Source of the DNA: a virus
Reading direction: 5' to 3' (one strand)
Length of the DNA: 32,000 bases
Virus record (IMG/VR): IMGVR_UViG_3300014059_000004
Below, piece by piece: positions 1,237 to 30,506 of the stretch. The translations under genes were made by a program, and so were the position numbers. Under the pieces are notes generated by a model, which was given only the letters and a program-made list of their open reading frames with translations, did not search any database and was not told the DNA's origin. Each line of letters opens with the position of its first letter. The first letter of the stretch is position 1.

Positions 1237-1590
1237 ATGTCGAAGGATAGCAACACCGGTTACGAAGTTGACGAGGGTGATCTCGAGAGCGGGATCCCAA
1301 CGCCGACGATCTCAAGCACCTCGATTGCGTGGTCAGACGCTGCGCAAGAGCAGAGCAGGAAGTTGCTGAAGTTGGCTGTGCGGCTCCGTGGATCATCCGA
1401 TCTCGGGGCCGCGAGTCGTTCTGAGGAAGCTTACAAGGGTGCTAAAGAGCTCGTTGACATCGCTTGCATCTTGAGCTGCTGCCCAAGCCTAGAACCTGAG
1501 CTCGGAACTCTCATTCGAACCAACTGCATACAACGAATAATCAACCTTGCTGAAATTTGGCGTGACGCGTTCGTTTCATGCGATATTTAA
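1237..1590 (+). CDS. hypothetical protein
   Basis: 117-aa ORF, ATG 1237, stop TAA 4 nt before the next start. Confidence 0.5.
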   Translation: MSKDSNTGYEVDEGDLESGIPTPTISSTSIAWSDAAQEQSRKLLKLAVRLRGSSDLGAASRSEEAYKGAKELVDIACILSCCPSLEPELGTLIRTNCIQRIINLAEIWRDAFVSCDI

Positions 1591-1594
1591 GGTG

Positions 1595-2605
1595 ATGCCT
1601 CCAGCAAAAAAGCCAGCTGCTTCAAAAGCAAAGAGTTCTCCCAAAGTTTCAAACGTTGCAGATCAGATTGTCGCATTTGTTGAGAAGCACATCAACTTCG
1701 ATGACGTGGCTTGGTTTGTGAAGCGCTACAACGAACTTAGAAAAATTAGTAGCAGATTCAAAGCACTTAGATTTGCAATGGAATTGCAAAAGAATCACGT
1801 GCCGTCGCAGATCATCAACTTGGTGCTGCCAAATGTTGGGTGGGGTGTTTTTGACGATGACGTAAAGATGCCCACGCTTGATTCGATCAAATTTCGCGCA
1901 AAGAAGCTGCCGAGCAAAGACTTGGGATTTTTGTCGGGTGATGCACCATTCGAGCGCTTCCAGAAGAACCTCAGTGATATTCGTTCTAAATTTGAAAAGT
2001 TCAGCAAGAAATTGGACAAATTGCCTGATGGCCCTTTTGACAAGATAGCATTTGCTGATGAAAGACCCGGTCTAGACGGCATAGAACCCGACAACAAGAC
2101 TGAACGTCTTGTCATGCGCCAGTTGATAAATCATTTCAGCAACGCAAAAGGAATAACGCCAGGAACAGCAGCGATGCTTCAAGGAATGCTGAAGAACGGT
2201 GAGTACAAAGACTTCCTATCAGAACCAAAGAACAAGGTTGTTTTTCGTGGCATGAAAGTTCCAAAGGCTTGGATTGCAAAAGCAATCGGAGAGAAAGCCA
2301 TGTACTCAATCCCTATGCACAAGAGAGCTACGTTTGAAAAGAAGTTCACTTTCACGCCTAAAAGACCCGTTGCTTCCTGGACATCTTCAATTGCTACGGC
2401 AAGAAAATTCAGCCAAGGAATGCATGATTACAGCGTCGTTCTGCATGCTGCTGTTGACGAAAATCCAAACAAGCTCATTGATTGCAAGCGTGGTCTCTAC
2501 GGTTCATCGATAGCAACCGGTTACGAGGATGAAAATGAAGTGATCGGAATCGGTCAGATAAAGGTTTTCAAGCTTGAAATTGTCTTAGTCCCTCTTTCAG
2601 ATTAA
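1595..2605 (+). CDS. hypothetical protein, candidate R-S-ExE ADP-ribosyltransferase (paralog 1)
   Basis: ATG 1595 preceded by AAGGTG; C-terminal ~190 aa align with the next gene; VFRGM ... VASWTSS ... EDENEVIGIG ordered like the R / STS / ExE triad of C3/Alt-type ARTs. Confidence 0.6.
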   Translation: MPPAKKPAASKAKSSPKVSNVADQIVAFVEKHINFDDVAWFVKRYNELRKISSRFKALRFAMELQKNHVPSQIINLVLPNVGWGVFDDDVKMPTLDSIKFRAKKLPSKDLGFLSGDAPFERFQKNLSDIRSKFEKFSKKLDKLPDGPFDKIAFADERPGLDGIEPDNKTERLVMRQLINHFSNAKGITPGTAAMLQGMLKNGEYKDFLSEPKNKVVFRGMKVPKAWIAKAIGEKAMYSIPMHKRATFEKKFTFTPKRPVASWTSSIATARKFSQGMHDYSVVLHAAVDENPNKLIDCKRGLYGSSIATGYEDENEVIGIGQIKVFKLEIVLVPLSD

Positions 2606-2618
2606 CGTTGAAGAAGTT

Positions 2619-3344
2619 ATGCCTATGCCCTCTACAAATAGCAAATCTAACAGTGGACCCCTAGACAGCATTGCTTTTTCTGATCAGCGGCCCAAGTATG
2701 ACAAGCGTAAGGGCATTGAACCGAACAATTCGCTAGAGGATAAGCTATTTAGCATGATCAAGGGTCATTTTGCCGGGGGTGCTTATGAACCGATCACTAC
2801 AAGTGTTGCAGCAATGTTTCAAAAATTCTTGGAAAATGGTCAGTACGATGACATCTTTCATGAACCCTCAGAAGAAACAGCCCACCGTGGCATGTGCGTC
2901 CCAGAGGCTTGGTTGACAAAAGCCATTGGAAAGATCGATGATGATGAAGGTGTTGTTAAGAAGAAGTTCACGTTCGCTCCACGGAAGAGCGTATCATCGT
3001 GGTCAATAGATGAACTTGTTGCTGAAGAATTTTCTGAGTACGATGTTGAGAATAATTCGCTTGCTGAAAAAAACTACAACATCATCATGAAAGCAAGAGT
3101 CTCTGACAATAAGAACAAATTCATCGATTGTAATAGGGGCTTGTATGATCTAGAAGACCCAGATACTCTAGAAGATTTCATGAAATATAACATCGAAAGT
3201 GAAACAATAGCGCTCGGGCCGATCAAAGTATACGAACTTCAGTACAAGCTAGCCCACGATCCTACGCACGGTGCAACAGTTCCAAAAAGCACGAAGAAAA
3301 AATCTTCAAAGAAGAAAACATCGCCTCTAAAGTCGAAGAAGTGA
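2619..3344 (+). CDS. hypothetical protein, candidate R-S-ExE ADP-ribosyltransferase (paralog 2)
   Basis: ATG 2619; shares IAF(A/S)D.RP, GIEP.N, NG.Y.D, KKKFTF.P with 1595..2605; AHRGM ... VSSWS ... IESETIALG; Lys/Ser-rich tail. Confidence 0.6.
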   Translation: MPMPSTNSKSNSGPLDSIAFSDQRPKYDKRKGIEPNNSLEDKLFSMIKGHFAGGAYEPITTSVAAMFQKFLENGQYDDIFHEPSEETAHRGMCVPEAWLTKAIGKIDDDEGVVKKKFTFAPRKSVSSWSIDELVAEEFSEYDVENNSLAEKNYNIIMKARVSDNKNKFIDCNRGLYDLEDPDTLEDFMKYNIESETIALGPIKVYELQYKLAHDPTHGATVPKSTKKKSSKKKTSPLKSKK

Positions 3345-4794: not shown

Positions 4795-4868
4795 CCTCGT
4801 GTAGCTTAATGCAAAGCGCTGGCAGATTCTGCCTGAAGATGTTGGGTCAAAACCAACTGCGGGGGCCA
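4795..4868 (+). tRNA. atypical tRNA-like gene, anticodon loop AGATTCT (G33; formal anticodon ATT)
   Basis: Acceptor CCTCGTG/TGCGGGG (3 G:U), D arm GCTT-AATGCA-AAGC, arm CTGGC-AGATTCT-GCCTG (T:T mismatch), T arm GTTGG-GTCAAAA-CCAAC (no TTC), G-CCA; correct overall length (71+3). Confidence 0.4.
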
Positions 4869-4884
4869 TTCCGGAGTCGTTCAA

Positions 4885-4893
4885 CGGTATATG
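4885..4893 (+). promoter_or_regulatory. -10-like box CGGTATATG, 8 nt upstream of ATG 4902
   Basis: YGGTATAMT family member; no Shine-Dalgarno between the box and the ATG. Confidence 0.35.
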
Positions 4894-4901
4894 ATAAGTT
4901 C

Positions 4902-5546
4902 ATGAACTCCATAAAACATGATTGTCCTTTTTGTGAAAAACAATTCTCCAAATATGGAATTAAATCACACATATGGAGAGTTCACGGATCAGGAATTAAT
5001 CATAAACCAACACAAGGAAAACAATCTTGGTGTAAAGGTCTGACCAAAACGTCTGATGTTAGAGTTCGACAATTTGGTCAGACATATAGCAGAAATATTC
5101 TTGAAGGAAAGACACAAATTTGGAGCACTGGAAAAACAAAATTTACAGATGATCGTCTAAAACGAATTTCAGAAAAGAATACTCAAACAGTCAATCAAAA
5201 ATTGAATGAAGGAACGTGGCACAATTCCTTTGCAAAGTCTAGAAAACAATTCTATAAAAATGAAATGTTTGATGGCATGTGGGAAGTTAAATTTGCCATA
5301 TGGCTTGATTCACAATCGATTCCCTGGATTAGAAATAAGAAATGCTTTTCATACTTTTTTGATCATGAAAGGAAATATATTCCTGATTTTTATCTTCCTA
5401 ACATTCAATGTTACGTTGAAATCAAGGGTTGGAAGACGAAAAAAGATGAGGCAAAATGGAGAGATTTTCCAGAAAATCTACTCATCTTGTCAGGAAGTGA
5501 TTTGATGTTGCTTGGTCTAGACATCAAAGCTAAAGAATGGAAATAA
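4902..5546 (+). CDS. putative PD-(D/E)xK-type homing endonuclease with N-terminal C2H2 finger
   Basis: ATG 4902 inside ORF 4809..5546 (the upstream part of that ORF is the tRNA-like gene); CPFC...HIWRVH finger; C-terminal GMWEVKFAIWLD...YIPDFYL...YVEIKGW resembles TnsA/Vsr-like PD-ExK cores; paralog on the - strand at 21473..22156; AT-rich. Confidence 0.6.
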   Translation: MNSIKHDCPFCEKQFSKYGIKSHIWRVHGSGINHKPTQGKQSWCKGLTKTSDVRVRQFGQTYSRNILEGKTQIWSTGKTKFTDDRLKRISEKNTQTVNQKLNEGTWHNSFAKSRKQFYKNEMFDGMWEVKFAIWLDSQSIPWIRNKKCFSYFFDHERKYIPDFYLPNIQCYVEIKGWKTKKDEAKWRDFPENLLILSGSDLMLLGLDIKAKEWK

Positions 5547-5549
5547 CAT

Positions 5550-5669
5550 TGTCCGGTAGCCAAGTGGTAAGGCAGGTGGCTGTGGAAGATGACATATCAA
5601 GTGTCTTGGTTCAAATCAAAATCTTCAAAAATAACCACCCTATCCTAGGTTCGAATCCTAGCTGGACAG
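5550..5669 (+). tRNA. tRNA gene with a 48-nt insertion in the anticodon loop (loop begins CTGTGGA = His GTG; Gln-like U1:A72 body)
   Basis: Acceptor TGTCCGG/CTGGACA, D arm GCC-AAGTGGTAA-GGC, perfect anticodon stem GGTGG (5575-5579) / CCACC (5635-5639) enclosing 55 nt, variable CTATC, T arm CTAGG-TTCGAAT-CCTAG; insert folds as GAAGAT/ATCTTC plus two inner hairpins. Confidence 0.5.
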
Positions 5670-5675
5670 CTTCAT

Positions 5676-5753
5676 CGATCTGTAACTCAGCGGAATCAGA
5701 GTAGCTCCCTCTTAAGGAGAACGTCGTGGGTTCGAATCCCACCAGATCGACCA
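5676..5753 (+). tRNA. tRNA-Lys: tRNA-Lys (CTT), CCA encoded
   Basis: Acceptor CGATCTG/CAGATCG, D arm ACTC-AGCGGAATCA-GAGT, arm GCTCC-CTCTTAA-GGAGA, T arm GTGGG-TTCGAAT-CCCAC, A-CCA. Confidence 0.85.
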
Positions 5754-5758
5754 AATTT

Positions 5759-5850
5759 CGGGTGGTAGCCAAGCGGTTAAGGCAGCGGGTTTATATTCCG
5801 TTTAGCGTCTGATAAGCGCAAGACCGGGGGTTCGAATCCCTCTCACCCGA
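5759..5850 (+). tRNA. tRNA-Ile (GAT)-like gene with a 19-nt hairpin inserted between position 26 and the anticodon stem
   Basis: Acceptor CGGGTGG/TCACCCG, D arm GCC-AAGCGGTTAA-GGC, extra hairpin GCGGG-TTTATAT-TCCGT (5785-5801), then AGCGT-CTGATAA-GCGCA (5804-5820) at canonical distance (variable AGACC) from T arm GGGGG-TTCGAAT-CCCTC. Confidence 0.5.
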
Positions 5851-5852
5851 CT

Positions 5853-5913
5853 AGTGATCAGTAACTACTATATGTTCACGGTCTTTGAAACCGTGAGAAT
5901 GTGAAAAATCACT
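5853..5913 (+). ncRNA. conserved 61-nt inter-tRNA spacer element, copy 1
   Basis: Outer stem AGTGAT/ATCACT, 5' arm CAGTAACTAC, central hairpin TCACGGT-CTTTGAA-ACCGTGA, 3' arm GTGAAAA; same architecture with compensatory outer-stem change at 25275-25334. Confidence 0.4.
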
Positions 5914-5919
5914 GTGCAC

Positions 5920-5991
5920 GGGTCCGTAGCTAAGCGGTAAAGCTGGCGCCTTTTAAGCGCAAGAGCGTGAGTTCGACTCTCACCGGACCCA
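5920..5991 (+). tRNA. tRNA-Lys: tRNA-Lys (TTT)
   Basis: Acceptor GGGTCCG/CGGACCC, arm GGCGC-CTTTTAA-GCGCA, variable AGAGC, T arm GTGAG-TTCGACT-CTCAC, discriminator A. Confidence 0.85.
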
Positions 5992-5993
5992 CT

Positions 5994-6067
5994 AGCGGGA
6001 TAGAGCAGTTAGGTAGCTTGCTTGGCTCATAACCAAGAGGTCGTGTGTTCAAATCACACTCCCGCGT
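5994..6067 (+). tRNA. tRNA-Met: tRNA-Met or Ile2 (CAT), 1:72 mismatch
   Basis: Acceptor AGCGGGA/TCCCGCG (A1:G72 unpaired), D arm GAGC-AGTTAGGTA-GCTT, arm CTTGG-CTCATAA-CCAAG, T arm GTGTG-TTCAAAT-CACAC. Confidence 0.7.
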
Positions 6068-6073
6068 CTATAT

Positions 6074-6146
6074 TGGCCTGTCGTCTAGCGGCAATGACAC
6101 CATCTTGCAAGATGGATTATCGTGGGTTCGAGTCCCACCAGGTCAA
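6074..6146 (+). tRNA. tRNA-Cys: tRNA-Cys (GCA)-like with a 6-nt anticodon loop
   Basis: Acceptor TGGCCTG/CAGGTCA, T arm GTGGG-TTCGAGT-CCCAC, anticodon arm CCATC-TTGCAA-GATGG: perfect 5-bp stem but only 6 loop nt. Confidence 0.55.
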
Positions 6147-6172
6147 CTGCTTCCACATGGAAGCGATACAAT

Positions 6173-6243
6173 GGGAAGTTCGTATAATGGGATTACGGGT
6201 GCCTTGCACGCACTTTATACGCGTTCAAATCGCGTACTTTCCA
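6173..6243 (+). tRNA. tRNA-Ala: tRNA-Ala (TGC)
   Basis: Acceptor GGGAAGT/ACTTTCC with the G3:U70 Ala identity pair, arm GGTGC-CTTGCAC-GCACT, T arm ACGCG-TTCAAAT-CGCGT. Confidence 0.85.
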
Positions 6244-6254
6244 CTCCTAGGAAA

Positions 6255-6278
6255 AGTCGCTGGTACTCTACGAAAAAA
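6255..6278 (+). pseudogene. orphan tRNA 3'-end fragment (copy of 3921-3948)
   Basis: AGTCGCTGGTACTCTACGAAAAAA versus AGTCTCTGGTACTCTACGAAAGAAAAAA at the 3' end and trailer of the tRNA-like element at 3863-3936; no 5' half present. Confidence 0.5.
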
Positions 6279-6323
6279 CGTCAGCACGCCTGTCGCCAGT
6301 CGGCAGGCAAACGGGTAGCCAAT

Positions 6324-6396
6324 ACTCGCATGCGCATCTGGGTATGCGGCACAGCTGTCTACTGTGTGAGGCTCGGTTCGATTCCGGCTGCGAGTG
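6324..6396 (+). tRNA. tRNA-Asp: tRNA-Asp (GTC), T at position 37
   Basis: Acceptor ACTCGCA/TGCGAGT, D arm CGCA-TCTGGGTA-TGCG, arm CACAG-CTGTCTA-CTGTG, T arm CTCGG-TTCGATT-CCGGC, discriminator G. Confidence 0.8.
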
Positions 6397-6422
6397 CAAA
6401 TGTTCTGAACGCAGAACATCAT

Positions 6423-6494
6423 ACGTCGGTCGTCCAACGGCAAGGACTCTGGTTTCCAACTCCAGGTATCTCAGTTCGAATCTGAGTCGACGTG
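6423..6494 (+). tRNA. tRNA-Trp: tRNA-Trp (CCA)
   Basis: Acceptor ACGTCGG/TCGACGT, D arm GTCC-AACGGCAA-GGAC, arm CTGGT-TTCCAAC-TCCAG (31:39 T:T), T arm CTCAG-TTCGAAT-CTGAG. Confidence 0.85.
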
Positions 6495-6501
6495 CTAGAT
6501 C

Positions 6502-6587
6502 GTTGATGTTACAGGAAAGTTCTTGGATATCACAGAAGTCTGCTCGCGGCTGCAACCAGAGCAACGGTTCGATTCCGTTCATCAACG
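6502..6587 (+). tRNA. atypical 86-nt tRNA-like gene, anticodon unresolved
   Basis: Acceptor GTTGATG/CATCAAC (complementarity extends to 12 bp, 6497-6508 with 6580-6591) and T arm AACGG-TTCGATT-CCGTT are canonical; I could not fold the 52-nt middle into D plus anticodon arms. Confidence 0.35.
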
Positions 6588-6596
6588 ATCTTACAT

Positions 6597-6667
6597 TGGG
6601 GATTAGCTCAACGGCAGAGCGGTGGCCTTTGACTCCACTGATCATGGTTCGATTCCGTGATCCCCAT
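6597..6667 (+). tRNA. tRNA-Gln: tRNA-Gln (TTG)
   Basis: U1:A72 acceptor TGGGGAT/ATCCCCA, D arm GCTC-AACGGCA-GAGC, arm GTGGC-CTTTGAC-TCCAC (31:39 C:T), T arm CATGG-TTCGATT-CCGTG. Confidence 0.8.
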
Positions 6668-6718
6668 CACTCGGTTAAACGTAGATTTTCATCTGAATTG
6701 ATACTTAGTTGTAGCATC

Positions 6719-6982: not shown

Positions 6983-7023
6983 CACCAGCTTGTACAAAGT
7001 TGGTTGCATGCAGTAAAAGATAC

Positions 7024-7611
7024 ATGATGAACAAATCAATCATTGCGATCGTTCTTGCATCTCTTGCGCTCAATTGCAACCGTGAAGTTCCAGATGTCAG
7101 CGCAGCTTCAGCATCGCCCCATGTTGTTCCATCTGCTTCCGTTGAGCATGCTTCTACGCCCGCGGTCACAGTTGAACCTGCCAGCGTTTCCAATCGTCCG
7201 ATTCAGTGTCACACCTCAGAGGGAAAGCGACGTCTTCCAGATCCTGAGCTGACACCGGGAAAGCTGTGCACTGCCCAGGATCTTGACTTTGACGGGTATC
7301 GTTACCCAAGCAAGATTCCTTACTGCCGTCGTCGAGTCACTGAGAAGATGAAGATGACTGTTGCTTCTTCGTACGGAATTCCAAAGGAAGATTGGAACAA
7401 GTACGAATTTGATCACTACATCCCGCTTTCGGCTGGCGGTGCAAACGACGTGACAAACATCTGGCCTCAGCCGCTGGATGACGCAAAAGATAAGGACGTT
7501 GTTGAAGTTCAAGTGTACCGCGGGTTGAAGTCTGGTGAGATGACTCAGCCAATTGCATTGGCAAAGATCAGGTCGTGGAAACCCACTGGTTGCAAGTTAA
7601 GGACTCAATGA
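7024..7611 (+). CDS. secreted or lipoprotein HNH-motif nuclease-like protein
   Basis: ATG 7024 inside ORF 7000..7611; signal-like MMNKSIIAIVLASLALNC; C-terminal YEFDHYIPLSAGGANDVTNIWPQP (D-H ... N ... N HNH-type core). Confidence 0.55.
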   Translation: MMNKSIIAIVLASLALNCNREVPDVSAASASPHVVPSASVEHASTPAVTVEPASVSNRPIQCHTSEGKRRLPDPELTPGKLCTAQDLDFDGYRYPSKIPYCRRRVTEKMKMTVASSYGIPKEDWNKYEFDHYIPLSAGGANDVTNIWPQPLDDAKDKDVVEVQVYRGLKSGEMTQPIALAKIRSWKPTGCKLRTQ

Positions 7612-18894: not shown

Positions 18895-18968
18895 CGGGCT
18901 GTCGCCTAGCGGCTATGGCGCCTGCTTTGGGTGCAGGATTTTCGGAGGTTCGAGTCCTCTCAGCCCGA
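18895..18968 (+). tRNA. tRNA-Pro: tRNA-Pro (TGG)
   Basis: Acceptor CGGGCTG/CAGCCCG, D arm GCC-TAGCGGCTAT-GGC, arm CCTGC-TTTGGGT-GCAGG, T arm GGAGG-TTCGAGT-CCTCT. Confidence 0.85.
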
Positions 18969-19014
18969 CTAACAGCAAGGAAACTTGCTCGTTGTTTGAC
19001 AATCTACGTTTCAC

Positions 19015-19108
19015 GAGTCTTTAGTGTAAAGGGCATACAAAGTGCTACAACTTCCACGTTGAGTGGGAAGGAGCATCTGACAGGGCGGTTCGATCCCGCT
19101 AGGACTCT
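19015..19108 (+). tRNA. tRNA gene with a 22-nt insertion 3' of the anticodon loop (loop CTACAAC, formal anticodon ACA)
   Basis: Acceptor GAGTCTT/AGGACTC, D arm GTGT-AAAGGGC-ATAC, stem AAGTG (19040-44) / CATCT (19074-78, one mismatch) enclosing 29 nt, variable GACAG, T arm GGCGG-TTCGATC-CCGCT; insert forms hairpin CTTCCAC-GTTGA-GTGG(G)AAG. Confidence 0.4.
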
Positions 19109-19114
19109 CTATAT

Positions 19115-19186
19115 CAGGAAGTACGTCAGCGGCAGACTCCCTCGTTCGGAACGAGGTGGCCGAGAGTTCGAGTCTCTCCTTCCTGA
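19115..19186 (+). tRNA. tRNA-Pro: tRNA-Pro (CGG)
   Basis: Acceptor CAGGAAG/CTTCCTG, arm CCTCG-TTCGGAA-CGAGG, T arm GAGAG-TTCGAGT-CTCTC. Confidence 0.8.
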
Positions 19187-19193
19187 CTGTTTG

Positions 19194-19313
19194 CATGCAG
19201 GTTAGTGTAACGGTAGCACAAGCCGGCACATCAGCCGGGAAGCAAGTGCAATTCTTGCGAATGATCAGCCTCACCAGGCGAGGAGGAGAGCGGTTCGATT
19301 CCGCGCTGCATGT
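19194..19313 (+). tRNA. 120-nt tRNA-like gene with about 47 extra nt (two hairpins) between the D arm and the anticodon-position arm
   Basis: Acceptor CATGCAG/CTGCATG, D arm GTGT-AACGGTA-GCAC, hairpins CCGGC-ACATCA-GCCGG and GCAAG-TGCAATT-CTTGC, then CCTC-ACCAGGC-GAGG at canonical distance from T arm AGCGG-TTCGATT-CCGCG. Confidence 0.35.
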
Positions 19314-19395: not shown

Positions 19396-19502
19396 GGGTC
19401 TGATACCTCAGACTGGCAAAGGTCGGGTGGCGGGAGATGTGAAGTCTCAGTCCGCTGGCAATACCCAACTTATCGCGGGTTCGAATCCCGCCAGATCCAC
19501 CA
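19396..19502 (+). tRNA. tRNA-Ala: tRNA-Ala (GGC) with a 25-nt hairpin inserted 5' of the anticodon loop, CCA encoded
   Basis: Acceptor GGGTCTG/CAGATCC with G3:U70, perfect D arm ACCT-CAGACTGGCAA-AGGT, stem GGGTG (19425-29) / TACCC (19462-66), canonical loop CTGGCAA (19455-61) preceded by insert 19430-19454 (GCGG-GAGA-TGTGAAG-TCTC-AGT-CCG), T arm GCGGG-TTCGAAT-CCCGC, A-CCA. Confidence 0.55.
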
Positions 19503-19572
19503 GGAGATACGTTAGCGGCAAAACTCCGTGCTCTGGAAGCATGTGACGGGGGTTCGAGTCCCCCTCTCCTGA
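19501..19572 (+). tRNA. tRNA-Pro: tRNA-Pro (TGG) variant with C33
   Basis: Acceptor CAGGAGA/TCTCCTG, arm CGTGC-TCTGGAA-GCATG (loop position 33 is C), T arm GGGGG-TTCGAGT-CCCCC; starts inside the CCA of the preceding tRNA. Confidence 0.7.
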
Positions 19573-19583
19573 CTACTTACAAC

Positions 19584-20102
19584 ATGATTACAAACCTATC
19601 AAATCTTCGAAAGATGATTAGAGAATCTCTGGCAGAGAATAGTGCGTTTAATCTCAAAGTTGCAGATGTGTCTAACAACGACAAGCTGTATCATGCAACT
19701 TCTGAACTAAACGTTGATTCAATCATGAAGCAAGGTCTTGTTCCGAAGAACAATTGGGAAGAACAAACGCATGAACCTGCTGTATTTGTCATCAATGACA
19801 TGTACGGTGCACTTGACATGTATGAATGGATTGGTCACAAAAGACAAGCAGTTGTCTTTGAGATTGATGTGCAGAAATTGCTTTCATTGAACCCTAACAT
19901 TATTTTTTACAATGATGCTGATTCAGGTGATGGAGCATACTGGACTCCTTCAGTGATTCCACCTTCAGTTCTAACGCTAGTTGAGTTCGATGATTTATCC
20001 AGCCATGGTGTAGATGGTACGCACACTCGCCTGAAGAGCCTGGGGGTCCCGTTCGATTCGGGATGGCTGGACTGCATGTTTGAAGAAGAGACTGATACTT
20101 AG
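19584..20102 (+). CDS. H-type ART-fold protein (Tpt1/KptA- or DarT-like) with N-terminal NLRKMIRE leader
   Basis: KLYHATSELNVDSIMKQGLVP resembles the YH(G/x)T ... (S)I ... GL opening of Tpt1/KptA and DarT; the later AVVFEIDVQKL ... GAYWTPSVIPPSVL resembles the KptA C-terminus as I recall it. Confidence 0.45.
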   Translation: MITNLSNLRKMIRESLAENSAFNLKVADVSNNDKLYHATSELNVDSIMKQGLVPKNNWEEQTHEPAVFVINDMYGALDMYEWIGHKRQAVVFEIDVQKLLSLNPNIIFYNDADSGDGAYWTPSVIPPSVLTLVEFDDLSSHGVDGTHTRLKSLGVPFDSGWLDCMFEEETDT

Positions 20103-20106
20103 AAGC

Positions 20107-20607
20107 ATGGTAATGAAATTTTCCGCGCTTCGCAAGCTAGTTCGTCAGCTCGTAAGAGAAGGCGAAGGTTGGCCAACAGAATCGACTTCTGAACTTTACG
20201 GTGGAGGATCTGGCGTTGACGTTCGGAATCCACGAAATCCAAAGCCAAACACGCAAGGTGCAACTCGCCTTCCAAAGGGCCCAAACTCAAGAGATAATCT
20301 CGGTGAGGGTTACAAGCGTCCATCGCAAGCTGAACTGCAGCAATGGTCGCAAGGAAATTACGATGAGATCAATGAAGATGCATCGGCCATGACGCAAGAT
20401 CCTTGCGAGGGTTGCGGCGAGATGAAGCCTTCGAACGAGCTTGCTCAAGCAAAAGATGACGGTAGCGAGCGCGGTGGAAAGTATCTCTGCCAAGCATGCT
20501 CCGGTAACATGTTAAGAATCGCAGAGGTGCGCGAAAAAGTTAGCGGCCAGATTGCAACCCTGGTGTTACTCGGTGCGATACCGAGCCTCTGCTCTAGTTA
20601 CGAGTAA
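20107..20607 (+). CDS. hypothetical protein with N-terminal ALRKLVRQLVRE leader and C-terminal CxxC...CxxC
   Basis: ATG 20107 (or 20113) inside ORF 20080..20607; CEGCGEM ... CQACSGN zinc-ribbon-like pairs. Confidence 0.5.
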   Translation: MVMKFSALRKLVRQLVREGEGWPTESTSELYGGGSGVDVRNPRNPKPNTQGATRLPKGPNSRDNLGEGYKRPSQAELQQWSQGNYDEINEDASAMTQDPCEGCGEMKPSNELAQAKDDGSERGGKYLCQACSGNMLRIAEVREKVSGQIATLVLLGAIPSLCSSYE

Positions 20608-20615
20608 ACGTTCTC

Positions 20616-20629
20616 CGGGCTTCGGCTCG
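20616..20629 (+). terminator. UUCG-tetraloop hairpin after the stop codon
   Basis: CGGGC-TTCG-GCTCG, 9 nt after TAA 20605-20607; no T tract, so it may be a stabiliser or processing site rather than a terminator. Confidence 0.25.
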
Positions 20630-20692
20630 TGGTGTAAAGGCAGCGCGCTTTGCTGATGGCAGAGAGGTGAGGGTTCAAATCCCGAAGTTGAA
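20621..20692 (+). tRNA. possible tRNA-Ile (GAT), irregular D and T stems
   Basis: Acceptor TTCGGCT/AGTTGAA (2 G:U), arm CTTTG-CTGATGG-CAGAG, T arm GAGGG-TTCAAAT-CCCGA with tandem G:A pairs; 72 nt. Confidence 0.35.
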
Positions 20693-20701
20693 AGTAATGT
20701 T

Positions 20702-20850: not shown

Positions 20851-20869
20851 CTGGTTCAAAAGTAACTAA

Positions 20870-20941
20870 CTCGCTGTCGCTCTTGGAGAGCAGCTGGCCA
20901 CATACGCCGGAAAGAAGAGGGTTCGAATCCCGCTCAGCCGC
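20870..20941 (+). pseudogene. degenerate tRNA-like gene with CAT-type loop CACATAC (A33)
   Basis: D arm GCTC-TTGGA-GAGC, arm CTGGC-CACATAC-GCCGG, T arm GAGGG-TTCGAAT-CCCGC, but only about 4 acceptor base pairs can be drawn. Confidence 0.3.
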
Positions 20942-20960
20942 AAGTGAAATTGAGCTTTTT

Positions 20961-21399: not shown

Positions 21400-21472
21400 G
21401 GCCTATCAGTTTCGCAGCTCGGAATATGCGACTTTCAATCGCAAGGAGTGGGGGCAGCACCCACATAGGCTA
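21400..21472 (+). tRNA. tRNA-Glu: tRNA-Glu (TTC) with non-canonical T loop
   Basis: Acceptor GGCCTAT/ATAGGCT, perfect arm TGCGA-CTTTCAA-TCGCA, T arm GTGGG-GGCAGCA-CCCAC (no TTC). Confidence 0.5.
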
Positions 21473-22156
21473 CTATGTTTTTACGGTGCGATTACCTATC
21501 ATTGAACACCGTCTAGAACAATATGAGTTTTTACAAGGATTTGGGCAAATTTTACACGTATTTGATTTACTAGTGGTGGGTCTTTCCTGATAAAGATCAG
21601 TGTAGGAATTTCCATACTTGTCTTTTACGTGTTTTATTATACCTTGAAGATCTTGTTTCCGAAAAACAAGCAAGTTAATGTGTGAACAATAAGCAAGTTT
21701 TGCTTGAAATTGTTTTGTATCATAACCCTTGATTTCAATGATGAATTCACCGATTTCAAAATCAGGTAGATAGGTGTGAATTTTACTTTCATAATAATAA
21801 GTGAAAGTTTTTTCACATCGCTTGATAGGAAGATTCATATCAATAGACCAAACTAGAAATGCTAGTTCCCAAGAACTACCACAATAAATTCCATTATACC
21901 AACCACACTTACTCCTACCAGAACCTTCACGATTACCTCCCAAATTTGTGTTCTTTGATGAACAAAAACGACTGCAATATTTTCGAATATATGAACCATT
22001 AACGCATGTGAACATTGTTTTACATGTAACCTCAATTCGAGGTGATCGAAGAATGTTTCTACGTTGCATTCGTCCGCTCAAGTTAGCTTCACAAACTTTG
22101 ATTGAATTACTAATCTTTTTCTTAGTTTCATCTGTTGAGATCGACGATGAGCGCAT
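21473..22156 (-). CDS. PD-(D/E)xK-type homing endonuclease, C-terminal frame (paralog of 4902..5546)
   Basis: SSWELAFLVWSID ... HTYLPDFEIGEFIIEIKGYDT matches GMWEVKFAIWLD ... YIPDFYL..YVEIKGWKT; STDETKKKISNSIK is NUMOD3-like; AT-rich; the zinc-ribbon N-terminus lies in another frame (22078..22230). Confidence 0.65.
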   Translation of the reverse strand: MRSSSISTDETKKKISNSIKVCEANLSGRMQRRNILRSPRIEVTCKTMFTCVNGSYIRKYCSRFCSSKNTNLGGNREGSGRSKCGWYNGIYCGSSWELAFLVWSIDMNLPIKRCEKTFTYYYESKIHTYLPDFEIGEFIIEIKGYDTKQFQAKLAYCSHINLLVFRKQDLQGIIKHVKDKYGNSYTDLYQERPTTSKSNTCKICPNPCKNSYCSRRCSMIGNRTVKT

Positions 22157-25077: not shown

Positions 25078-25123
25078 GATGTAATTGAGCTGCACAATAG
25101 TAACCGTAGTAACCGTAAAAGTA

Positions 25124-25184
25124 GTGTAGAATATGCACGGATGGCTTTTAACCATCAGGCGGGAGTTAACTTCCCTCAGGTGAA
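25124..25184 (+). pseudogene. tRNA-Lys (TTT)-like pseudogene without an acceptor stem
   Basis: D arm GTGT-AGAATAT-GCAC, perfect arm GATGG-CTTTTAA-CCATC, degenerate T arm GGGAG-TTAACTT-CCCTC; flanks do not pair; preceded by the tandem AGTAACCGT x2 (25099-25116). Confidence 0.35.
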
Positions 25185-25198
25185 ATTGTAGCAGTGAT

Positions 25199-25274: not shown

Positions 25275-25334
25275 AGTGACAAGTAACTGCAGCTGTTAAA
25301 TAATTGAAGAATTTAACATAAGGTGAACGTCACT
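25275..25334 (+). ncRNA. conserved inter-tRNA spacer element, copy 2
   Basis: Outer stem AGTGAC/GTCACT, 5' arm AAGTAACTGC, central hairpin GTTAAAT-AATTGAAGA-ATTTAAC, 3' arm GGTGAAC; compare 5853-5913. Confidence 0.4.
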
Positions 25335-26440: not shown

Positions 26441-26887
26441 ATAGCTGCGCAAGTTGCTCATGCATCGATGCAGTTCCTGCTCGATGCGAATCAGTCTGAT
26501 TCTTTCGGTGAGTTGCATGTGGTGCTGACGCCCGAAGAGATCGAATGGTTGAACGGATCATTCACCAAGATTGTCGTAGGTGTGGATTCAGAGAACGTTT
26601 TGAACGAGCTCGTCCTTCGAGCTAAGATGTCAGACATCACTGTCTTCCAGATCGTTGATTCTGGCAAGACTGAATTCAATGGAGTTCCAACGTTGACTTG
26701 CGCAGCATTTGGACCAAACGATGCTGCAGACATCGATAAGATCACTGGTCATCTAAAACTCATCTTACAACGGGCGCATAGCTTAGTGGCTAAAGCATTT
26801 GGTCTACACCCAAATTATCGGGGGTTCGAGTCCCTCTGCGCCTACAGTGGAAACATGCTCGAGAGGCTGAAGAGATCGGTTTGCTAA
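26375..26887 (+). CDS. pth2: peptidyl-tRNA hydrolase, Pth2 (archaeal/eukaryotic) type; ORF reads through tRNA-Val
   Basis: ATG 26375 inside ORF 26357..26887; VIVVRNDLGMRKGKIAAQVAHAS ... KIVVGV ... IVDSGKTEF ... PTLTCAAFGP ... ITGHLKLI; homology should end near 26765, but no stop occurs until 26885-26887. Confidence 0.75.
   Translation: MKKFEVKQVIVVRNDLGMRKGKIAAQVAHASMQFLLDANQSDSFGELHVVLTPEEIEWLNGSFTKIVVGVDSENVLNELVLRAKMSDITVFQIVDSGKTEFNGVPTLTCAAFGPNDAADIDKITGHLKLILQRAHSLVAKAFGLHPNYRGFESLCAYSGNMLERLKRSVC
26772..26844 (+). tRNA. tRNA-Val: tRNA-Val (TAC) with C33
   Basis: Acceptor GGGCGCA/TGCGCCT, D arm GCTT-AGTGGCTA-AAGC, arm TTTGG-TCTACAC-CCAAA, T arm GGGGG-TTCGAGT-CCCTC. Confidence 0.8.
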
Positions 26888-29266: not shown

Positions 29267-29273
29267 TTTGTTC

Positions 29274-30506
29274 ATGGCACGTCCTCTTGTCGTAGAATTT
29301 TTGAAGAACCACTCGCTCCAGGAGCTGGAGCGAATGCACGGTGTTTGTGCACGAGCAAGCGCGGATGGTTCAAAGTATGGTCTCAACTATGACATGCTTT
29401 TGTCAAAGCCTGGTGATCAGCTCGCGGGCGAGTGTCGCGGGATGGTTATCCGACCGCTTGTTCGAATTTCTGCCGGCAGCGAAGCACCAGTTGGTGACGT
29501 AGAGGTCGTTGCGTGGCCAATGAGCAGGTTTTACAATCACGGTGATCCTAACGCTGCGACCGTTGATTGGTCTGACCCAAACCTTGACGTCTTCGAGAAG
29601 CTTGATGGCACGATGATAGTCATGTATTGGGATGCTGTTGCGCAAGTTTGGCATGCCGGAACTCGAAGTGTTCCAGAAGCTGACCTGCCGATCTGCAAAG
29701 AACACGTAGAGATCGGGAACAAGACGTTTTCCCAGCTGTTTTGGGATGCTATGAGGAGCATGTTCGAAGCCAATCGCTTCCTCGAAGCATCGAACTTCGA
29801 GGAATGGGTGAACTCTTCCTTCAACAAGGAAGTTACGTACGTCTTCGAGCTCACGAGCCCATACAACCGCGTCGTTGTCAAGTACGAAGATACGAAGGCA
29901 ACGCTTCTCGCGGCACGTCACACGGCATCCGGTGAAGAGATGCGGGTTCATGTTAGTTCCATCGGATTGCCTATCATTCCTCGAGCAAAGACGTGGAAGA
30001 TAAGCTCAGCTTCTGCACTCGAAGCGTTCGTCAACGCTGCAGATCCTACGACGATGGAAGGTGCAGTCGTTCTCGACAGCAAGTTCAATCGCTTGAAGAT
30101 GAAGAACATGGCGTGGGTGCTGTCATCTCGCGCTAAGGACCTCGTGACTGTCTCTAGGCGATCAGCATTGCTGGCAATCATCAAGGGAACGATCGACGAT
30201 ATCATCCCTCTTGTGTCAGAGGATATCAGCAAGGAACTCATGAAGATGCAAGAGCAGCTTGTTACGTTGTGTGCCAACATGGACGCAAAGTTTCAACAGT
30301 TCTTCATCGAAGCTGACAGTAATCGTCGACGTTTTGCAGAGCTAGTCCTTACGCAGGACGACTGCATCCCTGCACCGTTCTTCTCGATGTGGGAAGGTCG
30401 CGTTCCTTCGACGCTTGGTTGGTTCCGAAGCGTAGCGGAAGCAGGTAAGTTGTCCTCGCAGATGCTCGATAATACACTTAACCACATGGGGAAAACCACC
30501 TCTTAA
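29274..30506 (+). CDS. ATP-dependent RNA-ligase-like nucleotidyltransferase (KxDG)
   Basis: ATG 29274 in ORF 29268..30506; motif I FEKLDGTM, YVFELTSP (motif IIIa-like), EGAVVLD (IV), LKMKN (V); no recognisable DNA-ligase OB domain; a separate DNA ligase is at 12187. Confidence 0.55.
   Translation: MARPLVVEFLKNHSLQELERMHGVCARASADGSKYGLNYDMLLSKPGDQLAGECRGMVIRPLVRISAGSEAPVGDVEVVAWPMSRFYNHGDPNAATVDWSDPNLDVFEKLDGTMIVMYWDAVAQVWHAGTRSVPEADLPICKEHVEIGNKTFSQLFWDAMRSMFEANRFLEASNFEEWVNSSFNKEVTYVFELTSPYNRVVVKYEDTKATLLAARHTASGEEMRVHVSSIGLPIIPRAKTWKISSASALEAFVNAADPTTMEGAVVLDSKFNRLKMKNMAWVLSSRAKDLVTVSRRSALLAIIKGTIDDIIPLVSEDISKELMKMQEQLVTLCANMDAKFQQFFIEADSNRRRFAELVLTQDDCIPAPFFSMWEGRVPSTLGWFRSVAEAGKLSSQMLDNTLNHMGKTTS

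Follow-up and report, generated by a model that had tools for sequence, protein, structure and literature searches.

The unusual anticodon loops in this viral tRNA array are real, but they are three different things and not one system: conserved departures from the rules at positions 33 and 37, one broken tRNA-Val gene, and two tRNA look-alikes. We lean towards a reading in which the first group carries selected, tolerated changes that would blunt host enzymes reading the loop, the allele at 6074 is dead, and the tRNA-shaped RNAs do not decode. Sequences, orthology, conservation and distribution are established here, and it is from these that we infer every function. The new and solid facts are the identity and origin of the gene at 6074, the isotype-specific conservation of U37 in tRNA-Asp across phages, and the non-decoding character of the elements at 4795 and 20870. 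Why phages carry tRNAs is an old question, and most claims of evasion have been built on sequence differences alone. Among the odd loops of phage arrays, selected variants, dead alleles and non-decoding mimics can occur side by side, and automatic anticodon labels (here Cys, Met and Asn) can mislead.

The array and its anticodon loops

The window, which is the whole 32,000 nt stretch analysed, is part of a jumbo-phage genome. ARAGORN finds 39 tRNA genes in it, in two clusters and all on the + strand, a phage tRNA array in the sense of at least 20 co-oriented tRNA genes amid phage genes, and the tRNA set is near-complete. The non-tRNA content comprises a truncated sigma-70 factor, DNA ligase, NADAR, Pth2, several homing endonucleases and a T4 Rnl1-like RNA ligase; the ORFs at 1547–3344 and 19584–20102 have no Pfam match. 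Nineteen kilobases are identical to a contig of SRR1145916, and runs from about 10 studies, on wastewater, river, freshwater and soil, contain close strains. Relatives found through the sigma factor are viral genomes of 309–369 kb with 56–58 tRNA matches and the tRNA order of the window. BLAST of the array against cultured phages returned single tRNA matches only, and the sigma factor and RNA ligase had no close cultured relative. A host search through the sigma factor gave cellular matches of only about 35–44%, plus one phage contig within a MAG, and a search for related loci with the ORF at 7000–7611 as query found none. Strains exchange entire tRNA genes or anticodon stems (Ala, Asp, Trp, Gln, Pro, Tyr) at 6173–6244, 6324–6668 and 18895–18969, and such swaps frequently adjoin homing endonuclease insertions.

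The preliminary description saw a systematic departure from the canonical anticodon loop. The letters that it gave are correct throughout: a 6 nt loop at 6074, C33 at 19501 and 26772, T37 at 6324, G33 at 4795 and A33 at 20870. Its labels fared less well, as 6074 is not tRNA-Cys and decoding by 4795 and 20870 is improbable, and for positions 33 and 37 the word ‘systematic’ is an overstatement. More than 90% of the loops are canonical there, with U33 and a purine at 37 in 35 of the 38 ARAGORN tRNAs that have a 7 nt loop; two have C33 and one has U37. The 31:39 mismatches that it reported in other tRNAs are present in 7 of these 38 genes, compared with 0 of 58 cellular genes (Fisher p=0.001), the latter being a small sample biased to high scores; in that sample C33 is absent and a pyrimidine at 37 occurs once. 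Within the clade the mismatches are concentrated in Trp and Gln; here and below, the genes counted for the clade lack phylogenetic independence. No information came from folding z-scores of single tRNAs. The Pro and Leu(NAG) tRNAs at 19115, 19501, 22527 and 23251 have A37 instead of G37, which leaves them without an m1G37 site; this change is found in 4 of 6 such genes in the window, 14 of 22 in the clade, 27 of 57 in other viruses and 0 of 6 cellular genes. The loops of t6A-type tRNAs (Lys, Ile, Met and most Asn) are canonical at 37.

One exception to the canonical loop is tRNA-Asp(GUC) at 6324–6397 (+ strand), with U37 at 6360, A38, G73 and an intact cloverleaf. U37 is kept in four strain alleles of this gene that differ in stems or bodies, and a pyrimidine occupies position 37 in 32 of 38 clade Asp genes. 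The 31 clade Asp genes with U37 have 27 different anticodon stems, and 30 of them have G73. By isotype, the 46 pyrimidine-37 genes of the clade comprise 32 Asp and 6 Asn, and U37 is also found in 6 of 42 clade Asn genes. The trait extends beyond the clade: a pattern scan of viral contigs placed U37 Asp in 48 of 80 loci among the matches listed, six being contigs of this clade, and the cultured Acinetobacter phage Aci05 carries it. Among 125 pattern matches in 121 cellular genomes, all of one deltaproteobacterial phylum (probably Myxococcota), 108 had an A37-C38 Asp loop; the U37-A38 loop occurred three times, each in an extra copy inside a tRNA array, and C33 tRNAs are present in two of these arrays. 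The arrays with the U37 Asp loop belong to large bacterial genomes, and in L441 and L443 C33 Val and Leu genes accompany it. Elsewhere, U37 or C37 Asp patterns matched once in 114 genomes and three times in 301 from the phylum of a Rhodobacterales MAG; these matches, judged without folding, look like chance, and the 301 genomes gave no convincing instance of the loop.

The U37-A38 Asp loop is thus common to other viruses and mobile arrays and absent from the housekeeping tRNA-Asp genes sampled, and on this distribution we take U37 to be a selected trait of mobile tRNAs. U37 is expected to weaken stacking on the codon. Both U37 in Asp and C33 in Val and Pro are conserved in particular isotypes and seen only in phages and mobile arrays, which indicates selection on the loop rather than decay. 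Being isotype-specific, recurrent in unrelated phages and present in a cultured phage, the Asp U37 loop is directly testable and could serve as bait for an anti-tRNA-Asp defence.

The two C33 genes are a second tRNA-Pro(UGG) at 19501–19573 (+ strand; C33 at 19533, A37), identical in two other assemblies, and tRNA-Val(UAC) at 26772–26845 (+ strand; C33 at 26804, 65 bits), identical in four assemblies. A canonical Pro(UGG) lies at 18895, and in this strain Val decoding within the window probably falls to Val(UAC) alone. Two of three related genomes carry a C33 Pro(UGG) in the same slot, and C33 Val(GAC) was found in twelve further viral loci. Overall, C33 occurs in 35 of 503 clade genes, 26 of 583 genes of other viruses and 0 of 58 in the cellular sample; noise in the Val pattern prevented a count in cellular genomes. 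Within the clade it is most frequent in Val (6/21) and Pro (4/13), and more frequent in four-codon boxes than in split boxes (20/140 vs 15/363, p=2.6e-4, for genes that are not independent). Unpaired stem positions are no more numerous in C33 genes than in U33 genes. Yeast tRNA-Leu(GAG) naturally has C33 and is functional, and C33 barely impairs it (PMC13492127). We believe that the C33 Val and Pro genes are probably working tRNAs. Selection on C33 is less clear than on U37; its patchy occurrence within isotypes could also reflect tolerated drift. All three genes (Asp 6324, Pro 19501, Val 26772) combine an intact cloverleaf with the cognate discriminator and conservation, and should decode. 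A literature search found no direct description of phage C33 tRNAs, phage U37 tRNA-Asp or anticodon-less tRNA decoys, many subscription papers lying outside that search.

The tRNA-Val(GAC) allele at 6074

The element at 6074–6147 (+ strand) had been described as a tRNA-Cys with a perfect stem and a 6 nt loop. The 5 bp stem is indeed perfect and the loop (6105–6110) does have six nucleotides, but the label fails. A tRNA-Cys needs GCA in a 7 nt loop and U73, and the element has a 6 nt loop and A73; the genuine tRNA-Cys(GCA) lies at 20521–20594 (+ strand), with a 7 nt loop, U73 and an A-C mismatch at 31:39. The orthologue of 6074 is tRNA-Val(GAC): in eight other assemblies the same gene has a 7 nt loop with C33 and anticodon GAC, and distant relatives carry Val in the equivalent Met-Val-Ala slot. 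Relative to the Val(GAC) allele, C33 has become U and A35 has been lost in the window. The 6 nt allele is a minority form present in 2 of 10 assemblies, the window and L034, from samples about 10 years apart; three other runs show the 7 nt Val allele. An assembly artefact is ruled out by its presence in L034, an independent soil assembly from 2024. L034 matches the window exactly from 4799 to 6447 and differs on both flanks, and because identity is limited to this 1.6 kb block we assign the 6 nt allele a single origin.

The change has left a perfect 16 bp palindrome at 6100–6115, in which the right arm is preceded by its own reverse complement. This is exactly the product predicted for copying of one arm, a template switch, and of the 90 products that one substitution and one deletion could give, just 2 are palindromes. 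Quasi-palindrome mutations by template switch (PMC3820800, PMC8604942) bear the same signature, a multi-nucleotide change that extends the identity of inverted-repeat arms; the present case differs in that it is read from two alleles only and that the anticodon was removed. An exact search for the palindrome in viral contigs gave 12 matches, 0 of them in a tRNA context. The 6 nt allele is probably the product of one template-switch mutation, in which the left arm would have been recopied from the right arm and the anticodon destroyed, making it a recent allele of Val(GAC). A 6 nt anticodon loop should not display a normal anticodon. For this reason we read the allele as dead, and it probably no longer decodes. 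GUY codons make up 202 of the 304 Val codons in window genes, and with Val(GAC) dead these would be covered by host tRNAs or by Val(UAC), which is probably what allows the broken allele to persist.

In every strain the body of this gene carries U1-A72 and the alanine identity pair G3-U70; the other Val genes examined lack G3-U70. Mischarging of the Val(GAC) body with Ala through G3-U70 is possible.

tRNA-shaped RNAs at 4795 and 20854

The letters given for the remaining two elements, G33 at 4795 and A33 at 20870, are right; their description as tRNA variants is not borne out, as the stems are conserved but the loops vary freely. The element at 4795–4868 (+ strand) is a tRNA-shaped RNA in a conserved Tyr-Asn slot, with paired stems, G73, an encoded CCA and a hypervariable 6–9 nt loop. 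Among its 22 homologues from 19 phages, positions are paired in the acceptor stem (154/154), the T stem (109/110) and the anticodon stem (105/110), and 19 have G73. Their loops, also of 6–9 nt, differ even between strains; all are different apart from strain copies, and none is a canonical seven-base loop with Y32-U33 and R37 that is shared between phages.

The ‘20870 element’ is the inner domain of a clamped RNA at 20854–20955 (+ strand), in which a closing stem and an AGTAAC/RGTGAA internal loop surround a tRNA-like domain, its acceptor being clamped within the longer stem. In relatives one such clamp was scored at the Gly-Thr slot, and the loop differs in all three genomes read. The window holds four AGTAAC/RGTGAA clamps compared with 0.18 expected from shuffles. 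Identification of the element as tRNA-Met is probably wrong given the clamped acceptor and the loop variation in relatives. A YrlA or Y RNA identity was likewise rejected: the clamps in the window have no Rfam Y/YrlA match, and no TROVE/Ro60 gene was found in five related viral genomes. The clamped RNAs lie at 5853–5913, 20854–20955, 25088–25193 and 25277–25333, the copy at 25088 holding a Lys(UUU)-like anticodon arm, and in relatives the same clamp encloses other tRNA-like domains.

A conserved 7 nt loop with U33, a constant anticodon and a free acceptor end, which mark a decoding tRNA, are not what 4795 and 20870 present, and the two are probably not decoders. They may be kept for their stems, elbow and (for 4795) 3' end rather than for decoding; a role as decoy or processing element is a guess. 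The T4 species 1 and 2 RNAs are tRNA-like non-decoding RNAs. Like these, the YrlA Y RNAs and the translation-inactive allo-tRNAs (PMC7609411), the elements described here keep elbow and stems and have apparently lost decoding; unlike them, they have a cloverleaf of the normal 7/5 form, and their variable arm is short.

Further tRNA-like or damaged genes were seen. In relatives the interval between Lys(CUU) and Lys(UUU) holds 1–4 tRNA-shaped genes per phage, with perfect stems, A73 or U73, often an encoded CCA, and scrambled 6–8 nt loops; the window has none at that slot. A 107 nt RNA at 19396–19502 has G3-U70, A73 and CCA, lacks an anticodon arm of normal form and gives a weak tmRNA match (35.5 bits, below the cut-off). 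At 5550–5670 a tRNA-Asn is interrupted by a 48 nt insert, and the endonuclease gene at 4908–5546 truncates a further Asn gene, whose 5' half lies at 4870–4890; in one other assembly both Asn genes are intact, the first with U37. The tRNA-like RNAs with rebuilt arms at 6499–6590, 19015–19109, 19195–19312 and 20621–20693 are identical or nearly so in other strains. A probable tRNA-Glu(UUC) at 21400–21475, identical in two other assemblies, has a non-standard T loop and was missed by ARAGORN and Rfam.

Nucleases, modification and the origin of the altered loops

The pressures proposed in the preliminary description, PrrC and colicins E5 and D, fit the loops poorly. The PrrC target tRNA-Lys(UUU), at 5920–5992 (+ strand), has a cellular loop, as do 22 of 29 clade genes, and is an internal control against loop-based evasion of PrrC; the Arg tRNAs, targets of colicin D, have retained U33 and A37. 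The site read by colicin E5 is Y33-G34-U35-N36, and the enzyme still cleaves a U33C substrate (PMC1635277), so U37 and C33 should not protect from it. Its determinants are intact in Asp, Tyr and His, tRNA-Asp with U37 is a predicted E5 substrate, and Val and Pro are not E5 targets. On these grounds the changes do not fall in the known recognition site of a named nuclease, the E5 site (33–36) being intact with C33 tolerated. AriB reads positions 36–41 of Lys, Thr and Asn tRNAs and cuts at 40/41, and escape from it has been proven through stem position 39, by U39A in T5 tRNA-Lys (PMC12409363). In common with our case, a phage tRNA is altered close to the anticodon, with protection of translation as the proposed effect; the determinants differ, lying in the stem at 39 and 41 with additional distal contacts, and not at 33 or 37, in other isotypes. 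A Schlafen nuclease cuts at 30/31, and phage tRNA changes can backfire (PMC13056530); escape from retron Eco7 hinged on promoter strength (PMC11555353). The 31:39 mismatches are closer to known cut sites than are positions 33 or 37.

Evasion of anticodon nucleases by loop mutations in phage tRNAs has already been proposed for the mycobacteriophages of cluster C1 (van den Berg et al. 2023, PMC10264068), which likewise have a large array with isotype-specific departures from the cellular loop consensus. For cluster C1 the host and the VapC/MazF targets are known; here the near-invariant positions 33 and 37 are hit, and the Ser anticodons reportedly avoided there (GGA, UGA, CGA) are all encoded. 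The Asp and Val loops of the window do differ from those of the sampled cellular tRNA-Asp and tRNA-Val, which may not be those of the host. A T4 Rnl1-like RNA ligase at 29268–30506 (+ strand; Pfam RNA_lig_T4_1 E=2e-10, PHROG 562 E=4.5e-35) is a candidate tRNA repair enzyme. As in the T4 Pnk and Rnl1 repair of PrrC-cut tRNA-Lys (cited in PMC10264068), a ligase of predicted activity lies beside the array and the Lys(UUU) loop is canonical. The ligase suggests tRNA repair as a parallel strategy rather than immunity. The ORF at 19584 has a marginal PHROG match to RNA 2'-phosphotransferase (E=1e-3) and could be part of tRNA repair.

How, then, did the odd loops of the working tRNAs arise? We consider evasion of host loop-reading enzymes the likeliest cause. 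Codon reading and charging determinants are retained in Asp U37 and Val/Pro C33, so that decoding is expected, and the changed base would make the tRNA a poorer target for host enzymes reading the loop as a whole, whether defence nucleases, toxins or the modifying enzymes whose marks they require. The changes would sit where the ribosome tolerates them, in keeping with the enrichment of C33 in four-codon boxes. More speculatively, the U37-A38 Asp loop may trace to a widespread host effector with its recognition site at positions 37–38 of tRNA-Asp (and Asn), with C33 in Val and Pro marking a second and the scrambled RNAs in fixed slots acting as decoys for tRNA-binding defence proteins. A role without defence is doubtful: the loops might have been freed from host modifying enzymes, or decoding tuned for fast infection. 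The host modifications concerned are m2A37, m1G37 and the queuosine-linked glutamylation of tRNA-Asp. The changes do fall at typical modification sites, and the parallel A37-for-G37 change in Pro and Leu(NAG), missed by the preliminary description, would suit this explanation; yet U37 carries a stacking cost without a clear translational gain, and the t6A-type loops have stayed canonical at 37.

Relaxed selection, by which tolerated loop substitutions in accessory phage tRNAs drift to fixation, is unlikely, and unlikely in particular as the cause of Asp U37. The persistence of the broken Val gene in two samples a decade apart, the patchiness of C33 with its near-neutrality in yeast (PMC13492127), and the free exchange of tRNA alleles among strains would be natural under drift, but the concentration of pyrimidine 37 on Asp, the survival of U37 through complete turnover of the stem, and the intact stems of the variant genes would not. 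That the 6 nt allele at 6074 represents a gain, with a Val tRNA turned into a non-decoding decoy and possibly alanylated through G3-U70, is highly improbable. Such a decoy would have company in the clade, which holds 22 distinct tRNA-shaped genes with a 6 nt loop, and the body of 6074 is intact, with G3-U70 and A73; however, G3-U70 is already in the 7 nt allele, 6074 has no encoded CCA, and the allele arose once and is carried by two assemblies in a single shared block. Least probable of all is that the whole array is a nuclease-proof replacement set. The near-complete tRNA complement, the precedent in cluster C1 and the 31:39 mismatches near the AriB and Schlafen cut sites speak for it, but besides the canonical majority of loops, the cellular Lys(UUU) loop, U33 in all Arg tRNAs and the intact E5 determinants, three of the six examples cited for it probably do not decode, and the phage encodes a repair ligase. 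What survives of that proposal is selection on the loop in Asp U37 and Val/Pro C33.
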